From NCBI GenBank assembly GCA_965214285.1, contig OZ243946.1, forward strand, positions 2,017,207 to 2,081,206: 64,000 nt of DNA, in the 5' to 3' direction. A model generated the notes under the pieces. It saw only the letters and a list, made by a program, of their open reading frames with translations, did not search any database and was not told the DNA's origin. The position numbers and the translations under genes are program-made. Shown one piece after another: positions 25,538 to 59,277 of the stretch (within the stretch, counting starts at the first letter, position 1; every line of letters starts with the position of its first letter). This stretch comes from Acidimicrobiales bacterium. GTDB taxonomy: Bacteria > Actinomycetota > Acidimicrobiia > Acidimicrobiales > Aldehydirespiratoraceae.

Positions 25538-27064
25538 ATGGCCACAAGCAAGAAGTCGGCAGCCCCCGCCGATAACGCACCCGCCAAGCGACCAGCCAAG
25601 AAAGCCCCGGCGAAGAAGGCCCCAGCCAAGAGAGCCGCCCCGGCGAAGAAGGCTGCCCCTGCAAAGAAGGCTGCGCCAGCCAAGAAGGCCCCGGCGAAGA
25701 GGGCTGCGCCGGTCAAGAAGGCCCCGGCCAAGAAGGCTCCGGCGAAGAAGGCACCCGCCAAGCGTGCTGCGCCGAAGAAGGCTGCGCCCGCCAAGAAGGC
25801 CCCGGCCAAGAAGGCGCCCGCCAAGCGGCCCACCCGAGCCAAGAAGGCTGCGCCGGTCAAGAAGGCGCCCGCCAAGCGGCCCACCCGAGCCAAGAAGGCT
25901 GCGCCCGCCAAGAAGGCCGCCCCGGCCAAGAAGGCTCCGGCGAAGAAGGCAGCAGCTAAGCGCCCTGCACCGAAGAAGGCTGCCCCCGCCAAGAAGGCGG
26001 TGAAGAAGGCGCCCGCCAAGCGGCCCACCCGAGCCAAGAAGGCTGCGCCGGTCAAGAAGGCACCGGCCAAGCGCCCTGCGCCGAAGAAGGCCCCGGTCAA
26101 GAAGGCGGCCCCGGCCAAGAAGAAGGCGCCCGTCAAGCGTGCTGCGCCGAAGAAGGCTGCCCCCGCCAAGAAGGCTCCGGCGAAGAAGGCTGCCCCCGCA
26201 AAGAAGGCGGTGAAGAAGGCGCCCGCCAAGCGGCCAGCGCCGAAGAAGGCGGCTGCGGCCAAGAAGGCCCCGGCCAAGAAGGTCCCGGCGAAGAGGGCGG
26301 CCCCGGCGAAGAAGGCGGTGAAGAAGGCGCCCGCCAAGCGGCCAGCGCCGAAGAAGGCGGCTGCGGCCAAGAAGGCCCCGGCGAAGAAGGTCCCGGCGAA
26401 GAGGGCGGCCCCGGCGAAGAAGGCCCCTGCAAAGCGTGCTGCGCCGAAGAAGGCTGCCCCCGCAAAGAAGGCGGTGAAGAAGGCGCCAGCCAAGCGCTCT
26501 GCGCCGAAGAAGGCTGCCCCCGCAAAGAAGGCGGTGAAGAAGGCGCCCGCCAAGCGCCCTGCGCCCAAGAAGGCGGTCAAGAAGGCGCCCGCCAAGCGCC
26601 CAGCGCCGAAGAAGGCGGTCAAGAAAGCCCCTGCCAAGAAGAAGGCCCCCAAGAAGAAGAAGGCCGCCAAGAAGAAGCCCGCCAAGCCGAAGTTCTCGGC
26701 GAAGTTCATCGCCTCGATGAAGGAGAAGCTGCTGATCGAGCGCGGCAAGTACCAGCACTCCGAGGAGAGCTACCGCGCCGAGGCCGAGTCGCTTCTCGAG
26801 GCCCGAGAGCCCGGCGACACCGTGTTCGACGAGGAGTCAGGCGAGGGCGACAGCCTGGCAGTGGAGCGCGAGCGCGACCTCGCCCTCTCCGCCCAGGCCC
26901 ACAACACCGTCGACCAGATCGACGCAGCCCTGGCGCGAATCGAGTCCGGCAGCTACGGGATCTGCGTCGTCTCCGGCCTCCCCATCCCCAAGGAACGCCT
27001 CGAGGCGATCCCCTGGGCGGCCGAGCGGGTGGAATACAAGGTGGGCCGTCTGGGCGGGTTCTGA
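25538..27064 (+). CDS. Fusion protein: N-terminal lysine/alanine/proline-rich histone H1-like repeat region plus a C-terminal DksA/TraR-like domain with a degenerate zinc finger
   Basis: 508 aa. Residues 5-388 or so are almost entirely A, K, P, R and V (PAKKA, AKRPA and KKAV repeats). Residues 389-508 read KFIASMKEKLLIERGKY...DEESGEGDSLAVERERDLALSAQAHNTVDQIDAALARIESGSYGICVVSGLPIPKERLEAIPWAAERVEYK, matching the actinobacterial TraR/DksA family except at the cysteines. The RBS GGGGAGAGG lies upstream. Confidence 0.85.
   Translation: MATSKKSAAPADNAPAKRPAKKAPAKKAPAKRAAPAKKAAPAKKAAPAKKAPAKRAAPVKKAPAKKAPAKKAPAKRAAPKKAAPAKKAPAKKAPAKRPTRAKKAAPVKKAPAKRPTRAKKAAPAKKAAPAKKAPAKKAAAKRPAPKKAAPAKKAVKKAPAKRPTRAKKAAPVKKAPAKRPAPKKAPVKKAAPAKKKAPVKRAAPKKAAPAKKAPAKKAAPAKKAVKKAPAKRPAPKKAAAAKKAPAKKVPAKRAAPAKKAVKKAPAKRPAPKKAAAAKKAPAKKVPAKRAAPAKKAPAKRAAPKKAAPAKKAVKKAPAKRSAPKKAAPAKKAVKKAPAKRPAPKKAVKKAPAKRPAPKKAVKKAPAKKKAPKKKKAAKKKPAKPKFSAKFIASMKEKLLIERGKYQHSEESYRAEAESLLEAREPGDTVFDEESGEGDSLAVERERDLALSAQAHNTVDQIDAALARIESGSYGICVVSGLPIPKERLEAIPWAAERVEYKVGRLGGF
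26198..26413 (+). repeat. Near-identical 108-nt tandem duplication inside the lysine-rich gene
   Basis: Unit 1 (26198-26305) and unit 2 (26306-26413) differ at 2 of 108 nt. Both encode AKKAVKKAPAKRPAPKKAAAAKKAPAKKVPAKRAAP. The whole 25550-26700 region is a lower-order AAGAAGGC(N) repeat landscape. Confidence 0.9.
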
Positions 27065-27082: not shown

Positions 27083-28033
27083 GTGCCCGGCAAGACAGTG
27101 ACCGCTGTCAGCGAGACAGTCCCGTCCGGCTTCGACGGCGAGCGGGTCGACCGTTTCGTGGCGGCTCTGACCGGTCGTAGCCGCTCGGCAGTCGCCGCGC
27201 TGCTCGACGGCGGCGCCATCAGCGTCGACGGCCGGGCCGTCAGCACCGCCTCGCTGCGCCTGCACAGCGGCCAGCAGGTGAGCGTGGAGGTTCCCCCAGA
27301 GCTGCGAGCCGTCCCCGAGCCCGATCCGGCTGTCGACTTCACGGTCGTGTACAGCGACGAGCACATCGTGGTGGTCGACAAGCCCCCGGGCCTGGTGGTT
27401 CACCCGGGCCCGGGCCATCCTCACGGCACCCTGGTCAACGGCCTGCTGGCCCGCTTCGCAGAGATCGCGTCGGTCGGCGACCCGCAGCGTCCCGGCATCG
27501 TTCACCGGCTCGACAAGGACACCTCGGGGCTGCTGGTCGTGGCCCGCACCAGCGCGGCCCATTCCGCTCTGGTGAAAGCCCTGGCGGCGCACCTGCCGGA
27601 GCGGGTCTACACAACCCTTGTCTGGGGGCGCCTCTACGCCGACGAAGGCACGATCGACGCCCCGATCGGGCGCTCGGTGCGCAACCGGGTCCGCATGACC
27701 GTCAGCGACAGCGGGCGGGCGGCGATCACCCGCTACCGGGTGCTGCGGCGCTTCGAGCGGCCCTGCGAGCTGACGCTGCTGGAGTGCCGCCTGGAGACCG
27801 GCAGGACGCATCAGATCCGTGTGCATCTGCGTGCCATCGGGCATCCGGTGGCGGGCGATCGCAGCTACGACGGCGCACGGCCCGGCATCGAGGTGCCACG
27901 GCCCTTCCTGCATGCCTGCAGGCTGGGCTTCGCCCACCCGATCAGCGGCGGGGCCGTCGCCTTCAGCTCGGCTCTGCCCGATGACCTGGCCGCAGTCCTC
28001 GCGCAGTGCAGCGACGCCGGATCAGGGGCCTGA
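27083..28033 (+). CDS. rluD: RluA/RluD-family 23S rRNA pseudouridine synthase
   Basis: 316 aa with an N-terminal S4 domain (RVDRFVAALTGRSRSAVAALLDGGAISVDGR), VVVDKPPGLVVHPG, the catalytic motif GIVHRLDKDTSGLLVVA, and TGRTHQIRVH. Confidence 0.92.
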   Translation: MPGKTVTAVSETVPSGFDGERVDRFVAALTGRSRSAVAALLDGGAISVDGRAVSTASLRLHSGQQVSVEVPPELRAVPEPDPAVDFTVVYSDEHIVVVDKPPGLVVHPGPGHPHGTLVNGLLARFAEIASVGDPQRPGIVHRLDKDTSGLLVVARTSAAHSALVKALAAHLPERVYTTLVWGRLYADEGTIDAPIGRSVRNRVRMTVSDSGRAAITRYRVLRRFERPCELTLLECRLETGRTHQIRVHLRAIGHPVAGDRSYDGARPGIEVPRPFLHACRLGFAHPISGGAVAFSSALPDDLAAVLAQCSDAGSGA

Positions 28034-56955: not shown

Positions 56956-57480
56956 ATGCCCCAGCCGATCACAACCCACGTCTACGGCGAGTACTGGAGC
57001 AACGACGGCCGGCGCAGCGAGCTGGGGCTGTTGATCCACGGTCTGTTCGAGCAGCCCGATGCCGACGCTCTGGACACCCTGGTCGGCCTGCTCGCCCGCT
57101 GGATCGAGACGCTCGACCTGCCCGACGACGCCGTGATGGTGGCCGTTCCTGCCGCCGAGCCGCGCAACGCCGCCGGCGAGAATCTGCCCACGCGTCTCGC
57201 CGAGGAGCTGGCCGTCGCCACCGGCCGGCCCTTCGAGGCGACCTGGCTCAGCAGGGCCAGGACCGGCCCGCGCCTGCGTGATCTGCCCGCCGACGGGCGA
57301 GCCGAGGTGGTCCAGGAGGCCGGCTATCGGGCCGATCCGGCAGTGGCGGGCCGCGACCTGGTGCTGGTCGACGACGTGCTGCTCACCGGCACGACCATCT
57401 CGCATCTCGCGGACCTGGCGCTGCAGGCAGGCGCCGCCTCGGTCACCGCGGTGGTGGCGGCCCGCACCCGCCGAGTCTGA
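56956..57480 (+). CDS. Phosphoribosyltransferase-domain protein (ComF-like, without the N-terminal zinc finger)
   Basis: The ATG at 56956 gives 174 aa ending in the PRPP-binding motif DLVLVDDVLLTGTT. The part of the track ORF upstream of this ATG is non-coding-like. Confidence 0.7.
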   Translation: MPQPITTHVYGEYWSNDGRRSELGLLIHGLFEQPDADALDTLVGLLARWIETLDLPDDAVMVAVPAAEPRNAAGENLPTRLAEELAVATGRPFEATWLSRARTGPRLRDLPADGRAEVVQEAGYRADPAVAGRDLVLVDDVLLTGTTISHLADLALQAGAASVTAVVAARTRRV

Positions 57481-57580
57481 GGGCCACAGAGAGCCAAGGC
57501 TCCGCCCTAGTACAAGCGAACCCGTGTCGAGCCGCTTCGGGCAGAGCAGTTGGACGTAGTCAGGCCACGAGCCCTACGGC

Positions 57581-58222
57581 TCAGGCGGAGCGTTTGGCGA
57601 GCAGGCGGTCGATCCAGGTCACGTAGCTGTCGACCTCCTGGGCGCCTGCGATCGGCAGCACCCCGTCGATCAGCACCGTGGGCACCGCGGTGATGCCTGC
57701 CTCCCAGGCCTCGTTGTGCTCGTCGATCACCTGGCCGGCCGCGGCGGGCCGGCCCTGCCGCAGCGCCTCGGCGAAGCCGTCGCGGTCCTCGCCCACCTCG
57801 GCGGCGAGGTCGGCCAGCACCTCGGGGTCCGAGATCGTGCGGTTCTCCGAGAAGTAGGCCTCCAGCAGCCGCCAGTGGAAGGCGTCGGCAGACCCAGGCG
57901 CGAAGTCGTCCATCACCTTCGCCGCCACCTGGGCGCCCATGCTGCCCGACGGCCCCAGGTCGTCGCTCGCCCAGACCCGGAACACGGCCTCGGGCTCCAG
58001 CGCCGCGGGCCGCTGCCACGACTTGGTGTACTCCACGAAGCGGGCCTGGTCGGCGCGTTGCTCGTCGGGGGTCTTCTCCTGCGGGCGCAACAGGAACGCC
58101 TTCCAGCCGATCTGGATCCGGTCCCCGAAGTGCGCTGCCAGCTTCTCGACACGGACCGTGCCGACGTAGCACCACGGTCAGAGGAAGTCCGACCAGACCG
58201 TGAGGCGCAGCGGGCGAGCCAT
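57581..58222 (-). CDS. DsbA/FrnE-family thiol:disulfide oxidoreductase with an in-frame TGA at the first Cys of the CxxC motif (candidate selenoprotein U-P-W-C; alternatively a pseudogene)
   Basis: My translation from the ATG at 58222 reads MARPLRLTVWSDFL-TGA(58180-58178)-PWCYVGTVRVEKLAAHFGDRIQIGWKAFLLRPQEK..., continuous and in frame with track ORF 57581-58090. The N-terminal strand and CPWCY motif are the DsbA/FrnE hallmark, and the C-terminal ...ITAVPTVLIDG... contains the cis-Pro loop. Confidence 0.7.
58146..58164 (-). promoter_or_regulatory. SECIS-like stem-loop 13 nt downstream of the in-frame UGA
   Basis: The mRNA sequence is 5'-UCGGCACG-GUC-CGUGUCGA-3': an 8-bp stem with one G-U pair and apical loop GUC (or GGUCC if the closing pair opens). 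The loop begins 21 nt after the UGA. A mutually exclusive alternative pairs GACCGUG with CACGGUC (58179-58154). Confidence 0.45.
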
Positions 58223-58398
58223 CAGGCGACCCTAGCGCCGCCATGGGCAGCCAACGCCTGCGCTGGGCAGCCCAAGCCGGCGTGGACAACCAAACCGGCG
58301 CTGGACAGCTATTGCCAGGCATGGCGACGGCACGCAGCCAGTGTCGGAGATGGCTGGAGATGGGCGCGCAGCAGGCCGCTTGTGACAAGGTGAGCACC

Positions 58399-59277
58399 GT
58401 GGCCAAGTGCGCTTTCATAGGGCTGGGGGCGATGGGCTACCCGATGGCCGGTCACCTGGCGGCCGCCGGGCACGAGGTCTGCGTTCACAACCGCACCCCG
58501 GCCCGTGCCGAGCAGTGGCTCAGCGAGCACCGCGGCGAGTCTGCGCCCACGCCGGCCGAGGCCGCAGCCGGCGCCGAGATCGCCTTCGTCTGCGTGGGCG
58601 ACGATCCCGACGTGCGGGCCGTGGTGGCCAGCGACGACGGGGCGCTGCGCGCTATGGCGCCCGGGTCGCTGCTCGTCGACCACACCACCACCTCGGCGGG
58701 CCTGGCCCGCGAGCTGCACGCCGCAGCCGCCGCAGCCGGGGTCGGCTTCGTGGACGCCCCGATATCGGGCGGCGAGGCCGGCGCCGTCAACGGCGTCCTC
58801 ACCGTGATGTGCGGCGGCACGCAAGCCGACTTCGACAGAGCCGCTCCGGTGATCGCCTGCTACGCCCGCGCCTGCAACCTGCTCGGCGGGCCGGGCTCGG
58901 GCCAGCTCACCAAGATGGTCAACCAGATCTGCATCGCCGGGCTGCTCCAGGGACTCAGCGAGGGCGTCGACTTCGCGTTGCGGGCAGGCCTCGACATCAG
59001 CGACGTGATCGACACCATCTCGCTGGGCGCAGCGGGCTCCTGGCAGATGCAGAACCGGGCGCTGACCATGGCCGAGGACCGCTTCGACTTCGGTTTCGCC
59101 GTGGACTGGATGCTCAAGGATCTGCGCATCTGCTCTGCCGAGGCGGCACGGGTCGGCGCGGCCCTGCCGGTGACCAGGCTCGTCGAGGGCTTCTACGAGC
59201 GCCTCCAGCAGCAGGGCCACGGCCGTCTCGACTCCAGTTCGCTGATCAAGCTGCTCGCCGACGATGCGCGAGCATGA
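58399..59277 (+). CDS. NAD(P)-dependent 3-hydroxyisobutyrate/6-phosphogluconate dehydrogenase-like oxidoreductase
   Basis: Rossmann motif (KCAFIGLGAMGYPMAGHL), followed by VDAPISGG and QLTKMVNQI (catalytic Lys region). I chose the GTG at 58399, with AAGGTG 6 nt upstream. The GTG at 58390 or the ATG at 58360 are alternatives. Confidence 0.82.
   Translation: MAKCAFIGLGAMGYPMAGHLAAAGHEVCVHNRTPARAEQWLSEHRGESAPTPAEAAAGAEIAFVCVGDDPDVRAVVASDDGALRAMAPGSLLVDHTTTSAGLARELHAAAAAAGVGFVDAPISGGEAGAVNGVLTVMCGGTQADFDRAAPVIACYARACNLLGGPGSGQLTKMVNQICIAGLLQGLSEGVDFALRAGLDISDVIDTISLGAAGSWQMQNRALTMAEDRFDFGFAVDWMLKDLRICSAEAARVGAALPVTRLVEGFYERLQQQGHGRLDSSSLIKLLADDARA

Follow-up and report, generated by a model that had tools for sequence, protein, structure and literature searches.

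DsbA-like proteins whose redox motif opens with selenocysteine (Sec, U) have been in the literature since the study of the Sargasso Sea metagenome by Zhang, Fomenko & Gladyshev 2005 (PMC1088965), which describes a COG2761 family with a UxxC motif and nine sequences, each with a stem-loop resembling a selenocysteine insertion sequence (SECIS). In two later sources, the DsbA-like selenoprotein is counted in 41 organisms (Peng et al. 2016, PMC5029168) and listed as 'DsbA-like protein form 1, PF01323, UxxC' (2026 review, PMC13188914). Among proteins of known structure, the best match to the product described here, by its sequence and by the fold modelled for a Cys orthologue, is FrnE of Deinococcus radiodurans (DR_0659; structures 5cnw, 5cp1, 5co3, 5coh and 5xwh; cd03024), a cytoplasmic disulfide oxidoreductase. 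The locus in question lies in an Acidimicrobiales bacterium (assembly GCA_965214285.1, contig OZ243946.1), on the minus strand of a stretch of 64,000 nucleotides, the whole of which we call the window. An earlier note, written from the letters of this DNA, had proposed it as a candidate selenoprotein gene. Our analysis supports that reading: with a probability of about 0.92, the locus is an intact FrnE/DsbA-like gene in which the attacking Cys is replaced by selenocysteine, and which carries a bacterial SECIS element. TGA conserved in 78 of 80 orthologous loci, a conserved and covarying hairpin and a frame free of any other disabling mutation all speak for it.

The window gene shares with the DsbA-like form 1 family the PF01323 domain, the UxxC motif with N-terminal Sec and widespread Cys homologues, and a stem-loop that follows the UGA directly and has a G in its apical loop. 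It is a further, mis-annotated member of this family published since 2005, an assignment made by domain and motif rather than by alignment to AACY01178397 and NIP15863.1, the FrnE match serving as a proxy for COG2761. The novelty implied by the earlier note is thus reduced, the family with its DsbA-like UxxC motif having been described in 2005 in the paper cited above. The hosts named in the sections at hand of the cited papers are Deltaproteobacteria and Clostridia, and an order-wide syntenic clade in Acidimicrobiales is not described in those sections.

On the minus strand, the reading frame runs from the ATG at 58222-58220 through MARPLRLTVWSDFL to the TGA at 58180-58178, and then through PWCYVGTVRVEKLAAHFGDRIQIGWKAFLLRPQEK... 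to the stop TGA at 57583-57581. Apart from the TGA at 58180-58178 there are zero interruptions over 213 codons. The mechanical list of open reading frames (ORFs) holds only the distal 169 codons (57581-58090, TTG start); this, like the upstream continuation of the frame from the ATG at 58222 through the TGA, is just as the earlier note had it. Since the selenoprotein gene itself ends in TGA, this codon is also an ordinary stop in the window organism, and the same holds for 44 of the 79 Sec-form genes considered below, which use TGA as their own stop codon.

Comparison among species carries much of the argument. With tblastn run against GTDB representatives, so that each species counted with a single genome, full-length matches were obtained at 80 loci, nearly all of them in metagenome-assembled genomes (MAGs) labelled Acidimicrobiales, Acidimicrobiaceae or Acidimicrobiia and encoding proteins 43-70% identical in amino acids to the window protein. 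The codon at the Cys column is TGA in 78 of these 80 species-representative loci; with the window gene they make up the 79 Sec-form genes, whose gene GC ranges over 39-72% and whose GC at third codon positions (GC3) ranges over 27-97%. The start codon stands exactly 14 codons before the TGA in 54/79 (ATG in 38, GTG in 16), and these 14 codons are conserved as protein (xxLxVWSDFL), including a Leu codon adjoining the TGA that varies synonymously between CTC, CTT, TTA or CTG. Downstream, the flank PWCYVG(T/A)VR is conserved in the orthologues, and the UxxC motif with Sec first is invariant in 79/79 Sec forms.

Cys/Sec pairs at the TGA column, one of the signs by which the earlier note would have the reading judged, are also found. 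Opposite the window TGA stands the first Cys of CPWC in each of nine Cys-form homologues that were retrieved (aligned sequences include P0005, P0006, P0053, P0060, P0064, P0109, P0110 and P0118), and in D. radiodurans FrnE it is Cys22; this places the TGA, as had been proposed, at the first, attacking Cys of the motif. At the level of DNA, four loci (L080, L083, L084 and L085) have TGT or TGC at the Sec column. The two exceptions among the 80 loci are L080, a Cys form, and L077, in which the N-terminal part is missing.

Some of these loci deserve separate mention. L083:10001-10642 (ENA ERZ841394 NODE_278; protein P0006) is a TGT Cys form whose sequence is placed among the Sec forms, nearest by eye to L027, L029, L034 and L036. 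Its hairpin keeps 6/7 stem pairs and is weak, with a minimum free energy (MFE) of -3.6 kcal/mol and a z of ~0 in the synonymous-recoding test presented below; judged from these sequences, it looks like a recent switch from Sec to Cys whose SECIS is decaying. The seryl-tRNA synthetase gene found 1.6 kb downstream in the same locus is probably there by coincidence. L077:1286-1789, from a low-GC marine MAG, is an orthologue without the first ~40 codons, UxxC included, and the sequence upstream of it shows no relationship in any of the three frames; either the copy is truncated or the contig is a chimera. Finally, L008, L063 and L080 come from MAGs labelled Gammaproteobacteria, Verrucomicrobiales and delta proteobacterium, respectively. 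All three have the DsbA-like gene, L008 has Acidimicrobiales-type neighbour genes in addition, and they are probably mis-binned contigs or mislabelled bins.

Bacterial SECIS elements lie within the coding sequence, directly 3' of the UGA that they serve, and the window gene has a candidate at this place. The hairpin UCGGCACG-GUC-CGUGUCGA (58164-58146) is present in the MFE fold; it begins 13 nt past the UGA and its loop begins 21 nt past it, in agreement with the 8-bp stem and both distances that had been drawn from the letters. In the window the loop can be read as GUC on an 8-bp stem or, alternatively, as GGUCC on a 7-bp stem, with an MFE of -10.4 kcal/mol, and the core conserved among orthologues consists of 7 stem pairs and an apex of 5 nt, N-G-U-N-C. 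According to the review describing the bacterial SECIS (bSECIS) model, the loop has 3-9 nt, the upper stem 4-16 bp, the distance from UGA to loop is 16-37 nt and the MFE is <= -7.5 kcal/mol (PMC13188914). A G is also expected within the first two nucleotides of the loop, usually as N1-G-[G|U]-N-N2. With a loop of 3-5 nt, a stem of 7-8 bp, G-U at the start of the loop, 21 nt and -10.4 kcal/mol, the window element falls within every one of these limits, which bears out the claim that its geometry is that of a bacterial SECIS; the energy limit is reached by 67/79 Sec forms.

Selection on this structure can be read from alignment A2, which is gap-free and holds 79 sequences, 75 of them distinct (positions counted from the U of UGA). 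Across the 75 distinct sequences, 90% of the cells of the stem (nt 17-23 x 29-35) are paired. None of 500 column shuffles (0/500) reaches the observed pairing or covariation score, pairing falls to 32-54% when the 3' arm is slid by 1-3 nt, and RNAalifold independently predicts the same helix. Compensatory changes occur at pair 21-31 (G-C 48, C-G 20, U-A 2) and at pair 22-30 (A-U 54, G-C 14, G-U 4). In terms of codons, the third base of a Gly codon (GGG/GGC/GGU) tracks the first base of the Leu/Val/Ile codon four codons later, and the first base of a Thr/Ala codon tracks the silent third base of an Arg codon. Silent sites within the stem are restricted accordingly: Val at nt 16-18 is GTC in 72/79, Arg at nt 28-30 is CGT or CGC in 76/79 and Leu at nt 31-33 is CTC or CTT only. 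The Val codon of the loop, unlike the stem codons, occurs with all four third bases. The conservation of the hairpin and the suppressed synonymous change just 3' of the TGA, both named by the earlier note as telling features, are therefore present.

The apex N-G-U-N-C is found in 79/79 Sec forms in five variants, the GU at nt 25-26 being invariant, and its N...C positions are able to pair in only 32/75 distinct sequences. A G-U wobble in the middle of the stem, at nt 20/32 (A2 columns 23 and 35), occurs in 72/75 distinct sequences and is never replaced by G-C; it is fixed by coding, because both bases are second codon positions (Gly GGN; Leu/Val/Ile NUN).

The synonymous-recoding test, in which the protein is kept and the codons are redrawn from each gene's own usage, points in the same direction. 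For the 79 Sec forms, the observed mean is -10.2 against -5.5 kcal/mol for the recoded sequences (z -2.3), with 55/79 at p <= 0.05. The window gene behaves like the group, with -10.4 against -5.5 kcal/mol and z = -2.3, only 1.7% of its recodings being equally stable. For the 4 Cys forms, which retain only 3-6 of the 7 stem pairs, the observed values of -3.6 to -8.1 compare with -3.6 to -8.9 kcal/mol after recoding (z -0.8 to +0.45). The covariation and the recoding bias show that the RNA structure of the hairpin is selected beyond protein-coding constraint. It is this comparative evidence, that is a TGA invariant in 78 orthologues, a covarying stem and the recoding result, that takes the locus beyond chance.

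The E. coli fdhF-type SECIS and the bSECIS consensus (bSECISearch) are likewise intragenic stem-loops 3' of the UGA, with a small loop in which U follows G. The fdhF element has a bulged U in its upper stem and its loop GU at nt 23-24. Compared with it, the window element has no bulge in the stem and its GU lies at nt 25-26, and the two sequences are unrelated.

On the protein side, the 213-aa product, with Cys written at the TGA, matches Pfam DSBA PF01323 over residues 7-200 (84.2 bits, cut-off 25.6, E 1.3e-23), and its best solved-structure match is D. radiodurans FrnE 5cnw/5cp1 (E = 3.9e-20, residues 4-206). The FrnE segment WSDIACPWCYIG aligns with WSDFL-TGA-PWCYVG, so that the pattern WSDxxCPWCYxG faces WSDFLUPWCYVG of the window protein and C22-P-W-C25 faces U-P-W-C. 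FrnE has Cys where the window protein would have Sec, and sequence identity between the two is only ~25-30%. These matches uphold the DsbA/FrnE thioredoxin-fold assignment, which had been made from that pattern.

The fold was analysed on an AlphaFold model of the Cys orthologue P0006, which is 50% identical to the window protein (predicted local distance difference test, pLDDT, 95). The model shows, in order, strand beta-1, CxxC and the long helix alpha-1, next the inserted helical domain and then a strand just behind the invariant proline of GITAVPT; the Cys equivalent to U15 lies directly before helix alpha-1. P180, the equivalent of P181, is invariant in alignment A3 and stands immediately before strand 181-184 of the model, and by analogy Pro181 would form the cis-proline loop facing the active site. 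The top fold matches of P0006 are five FrnE structures, including 5cp1, 5co3 and 5cnw (template modelling score, TM, 0.78-0.80, E = 4e-13), followed by cytoplasmic DsbA-like proteins, namely SCO1869, DsbM, YjbH, HCCA isomerase and kappa-class glutathione S-transferase (GST). Periplasmic DsbAs come lower (TM 0.54-0.66). The periplasmic DsbA of the E. coli type (CPHC, reoxidised by DsbB) likewise combines the thioredoxin fold and its helical insertion with a cis-Pro loop and with a CxxC-type motif at the N-terminus of helix alpha-1, but the window protein differs from it by the apparent absence of a leader, beta-1 starting from about residue 5, and the fold match of the P0006 model to periplasmic DsbAs is weaker.

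Indeed, only ~5 residues precede strand beta-1, and no hydrophobic leader is seen by inspection of the sequence and of the model. The active site of D. radiodurans FrnE is proposed to be regenerated by a C-terminal CxxxxC tail at residues 239-244 (PMC8945050). This tail is missing from the window protein: it ends at residue 213 (...WIDRLLAKRSA in the translation), and Cys18 is its single Cys, with none beyond it. It is still compatible with the FrnE subfamily, because S. roseofulvus FrnE and D. maricopensis FrnE are also devoid of the CxxxxC tail (PMC8945050). Given the apparent lack of a leader and the missing tail, the protein would therefore probably be a cytoplasmic reductase or isomerase recycled by an external reductant, a reductive or isomerising role being more probable than an oxidative one. 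In the ORFs inspected nearby, no gene for a DsbB/VKOR partner, such as dsbB, was noticed.

These elements can be combined in a model. The hairpin, which lies within the coding sequence of helix alpha-1 (YVGTVRV), would bind the SelB-GTP-Sec-tRNA(Sec) complex via its apical G-U, and Sec would be delivered to the UGA in the ribosomal A site in place of release factor 2, giving Sec15. Its selenolate, placed where helix alpha-1 begins, would then attack substrate disulfides or other oxidised thiols, the resulting selenenylsulfide would be resolved by Cys18, and the oxidised enzyme would be recycled by an external reductant. In this scheme, the SelB dependence, the inserted residue and the redox direction are what we infer.

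Several results weigh against a selenoprotein gene at this locus, or temper the evidence for it. ARAGORN detected no tRNA-Sec in the 64 kb window or in the 80 related loci (~1.3 Mb of flanks), the window having no tRNA gene of any kind (a 97-nt 'tRNA-Val' in L007 is a false positive within GC-rich coding sequence). With E. coli SelA/SelB/SelD (NC_000913) as queries, tblastn gave no match in the window or in the sequence flanking the 80 loci. Nor did a second selenoprotein gene turn up, be it in the window or around the related loci. An all-vs-all search of the flanks for conserved in-frame TGA returned the DsbA site as its top cluster, and the remaining clusters were off-frame Arg/Ser/Pro-rich translations or true stops; of the two candidates that came from scanning the frames of the window by GC3, one is an ordinary stop before an in-frame gene and the other lies in an antisense frame. 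As regards the hairpin, the single-sequence fold energy (76 nt) is unremarkable compared with dinucleotide shuffles (z = -0.06), as expected at 72% GC, so that the hairpin by itself is no proof. Since it lies within a conserved coding segment, some of its conservation is due to protein constraint, and the Cys-form controls of the recoding test were four only (L080, L083, L084 and L085). Rfam gave zero matches over the whole window at gathering thresholds. At E <= 10 it gave, for the locus, only SECIS_3 (RF01989; 13.9 bits, E = 2, gathering score 63), which is not significant; we consider this match (58163-58206, minus strand) as noise, since it covers the UGA and upstream sequence and mostly not the hairpin. 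Of the covariance-model or predictor check put forward by the earlier note, the Rfam part thus brought no significant match, whereas the element agrees with the published bSECIS description in full. The silence of Rfam is uninformative, as Rfam is without a working model for such elements; a preprint on Actinomarina reports the same failure and ascribes it to poor coverage of bacterial SECIS (10.64898/2026.04.03.716425).

As for the machinery, the premise that selenoproteins are uncommon in Actinobacteria was overstated. Peng et al. 2016 (PMC5029168, Tables S1 and S2) list three Acidimicrobiales as SelD+/SelA+/SelB+, Ilumatobacter coccineus, I. nonamiensis and Ca. Microthrix parvicella, with 15, 10 and 7 selenoproteins, respectively, and in the class Acidimicrobiia, selA, selB, selC and selD are reported in all 84 complete Actinomarina genomes (preprint 10.64898/2026.04.03.716425). 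The Sec trait is thus supported indirectly, by what is published on the order and the class.

The simplest competitor would be a recent pseudogene, in which a nonsense mutation from TGC to TGA struck a Cys-type FrnE/DsbA gene and the hairpin is a coincidence. A one-base change is enough for it, and the ordinary fold energy and the lack of Sec machinery in the window would fit. Yet the relatives carry TGA and not TGC, at the same column in 78/80 species whose proteins are only 43-70% identical and whose GC differs by >30 points; the frame is intact with its 14 upstream codons conserved and shows no further disabling mutation, and the stem is conserved, covaries and has synonymous sites biased toward pairing. 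One shared assembly error is implausible given 78 independent MAGs. A nonsense mutation cannot stay fixed over such divergence with flanks under purifying selection, and we therefore regard this competing explanation of the earlier note as refuted, its residual probability being negligible. Scarcely more credible is that translation stops at the UGA and that the functional protein is the 169-residue ORF from the TTG at 58090, devoid of a redox motif. Gene callers do predict this here and in most homologues, but such a fragment would be without beta-1, UxxC and helix alpha-1, the elements at the core of a thioredoxin fold, the called starts differ between orthologues, as arbitrary choices of callers would, and the region 5' of these starts is conserved as protein, in frame through the TGA.

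The evidence fixes a recoding signal and not the chemistry of the inserted residue, which leaves room for the UGA being recoded to something other than Sec: to Cys via a tRNA(Sec)-like tRNA(Cys) and a SelB-like factor, or, through context-dependent read-through, to Trp or another residue. The same hairpin would serve if SelB delivered a different aminoacyl-tRNA. On the other hand, the codon occupies the position of the catalytic nucleophile, where only Cys or Sec makes the redox motif work; for selenoproteins of the DsbA-like kind, UxxC is an established pattern (PMC1088965; PMC13188914); and cultured Acidimicrobiales have SelA, SelB, SelD and many selenoproteins. Insertion of Cys would moreover maintain a costly UGA and SECIS without obvious advantage when TGC/TGT is one mutation away, and genes do pass from one form to the other, L083 being a case. 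We hold this possibility to be very unlikely, if slightly less so than the two preceding ones; if true, an order-wide clade of 79 species would practise SECIS-dependent non-Sec recoding. Selenocysteine insertion thus remains our preferred reading.

How such a gene fares in annotation is visible in public data. A search of 5.8 billion proteins was made, of which the best 120 matches were used (P0001-P0120), and ~100 of these cover 66-91% of the query. The short homologues that were retrieved begin downstream of CxxC in 18/18 cases, for example with 'MRVDEL...' or 'VRVDEL...'; one of them, P0001, has 169 aa and is 98% identical to the window protein. The nine full-length homologues retrieved read SD(F/Y)LCPWCYV. 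Short homologues start after CxxC and long ones have Cys because callers meet an in-frame stop at the first Cys. The called starts vary among orthologues, being a GTG at VRV, an ATG further downstream, etc. This DsbA-like selenoprotein is systematically mis-annotated, a catalytically complete redox enzyme being entered as a fragment without its motif. It is covered by no NCBIfam model, the best match being NF041057, with 33 bits against a cut-off of 190. The features of the locus are collected below.

Table. Features of the FrnE/DsbA-like locus in the window
Feature	Coordinates	Strand	Details
Complete predicted selenoprotein gene, FrnE/DsbA-like thiol-disulfide oxidoreductase, U15-P-W-C18	57581..58222	minus	213 codons + stop; translation, Pfam, PDB match, tblastn
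ATG start	58220..58222	minus	14 codons 5' of the Sec codon
In-frame TGA, predicted Sec codon, residue 15, at the nucleophilic-Cys position of CPWC	58178..58180	minus	
TGC, Cys18, putative resolving Cys of UxxC	58169..58171	minus	TGC/TGT in 79/79 Sec forms
Putative bacterial SECIS hairpin	58146..58164	minus	5' arm 58164-58157 (nt 17-24 from U of UGA), loop GUC 58156-58154, 3' arm 58153-58146 (nt 28-35)
Truncated 169-codon ORF, TTG start at 58090	57581..58090	minus	mechanical ORF list; public gene calls similar
Pro181 codon, motif GITAVPT, putative cis-proline loop by position	57680..57682	minus	P181 invariant (alignment A1)
TGA stop of the predicted selenoprotein gene	57581..57583	minus	

The neighbouring window ORFs inspected encode a HIBADH-like dehydrogenase, a kinase-like protein, a BKACE protein, a helix-turn-helix (HTH) regulator and an EamA transporter. 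The HIBADH-like NAD-binding dehydrogenase (58243-59277, plus strand) is divergent from the selenoprotein gene, and its orthologues (L001-L076) are 67-75% identical. Such an orthologue is present in 32 related loci and is divergently adjacent to the selenoprotein gene in ~20, at ~40-130 nt from its start. Given this arrangement, the dehydrogenase may be linked in function to the selenoprotein, by way of a common promoter region or as its redox partner. The HTH regulator gene was found in 34 loci, 1.1-2.3 kb downstream in 33/34, and the BKACE gene is present at 24 loci. This shared neighbourhood indicates that the loci are true orthologues. A promoter/terminator scan of 57300-58500 found none.

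Elsewhere in the window, a 508-aa ORF (25538-27064, plus strand) contains ~400 residues of Lys/Ala/Pro-rich AKKA/PAKK repeats (histone-like) and a C-terminal tail that looks DksA/TraR-like. The ORF stops with TGA at 27062, and behind it, without a change of frame, comes an apparent gene for an RluD-type pseudouridine synthase (27083-28033, plus strand); this TGA, flagged by the GC3 scan as a possible Sec codon, is an ordinary stop.

Although the family itself is known, the order-wide, syntenic and essentially fixed occurrence of a Sec-containing FrnE in marine/aquatic Acidimicrobiales may be a new detail, as suggested by the compared sequences. We hold this to be far more likely than non-Sec recoding. 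In this clade, the SECIS stem would dictate a choice of residue in helix alpha-1: Leu where the Gly codon is GGG, Val where it is GGC and Ile where it is GGU. The 79 aligned SECIS elements, spread over a GC3 of 27-97%, represent a natural experiment on an RNA signal and a protein helix sharing the same nucleotides, and their alignment is a good seed for the covariance model that Rfam lacks. Knowledge of Sec decoding itself is unchanged by this finding. What it would add to the DsbA-like selenoprotein family is an order-wide syntenic clade, with 78 species representatives, and recognition of the selenoprotein would mark the window organism as a selenium user, which is relevant to the selenium demand of the abundant marine Acidimicrobiia.

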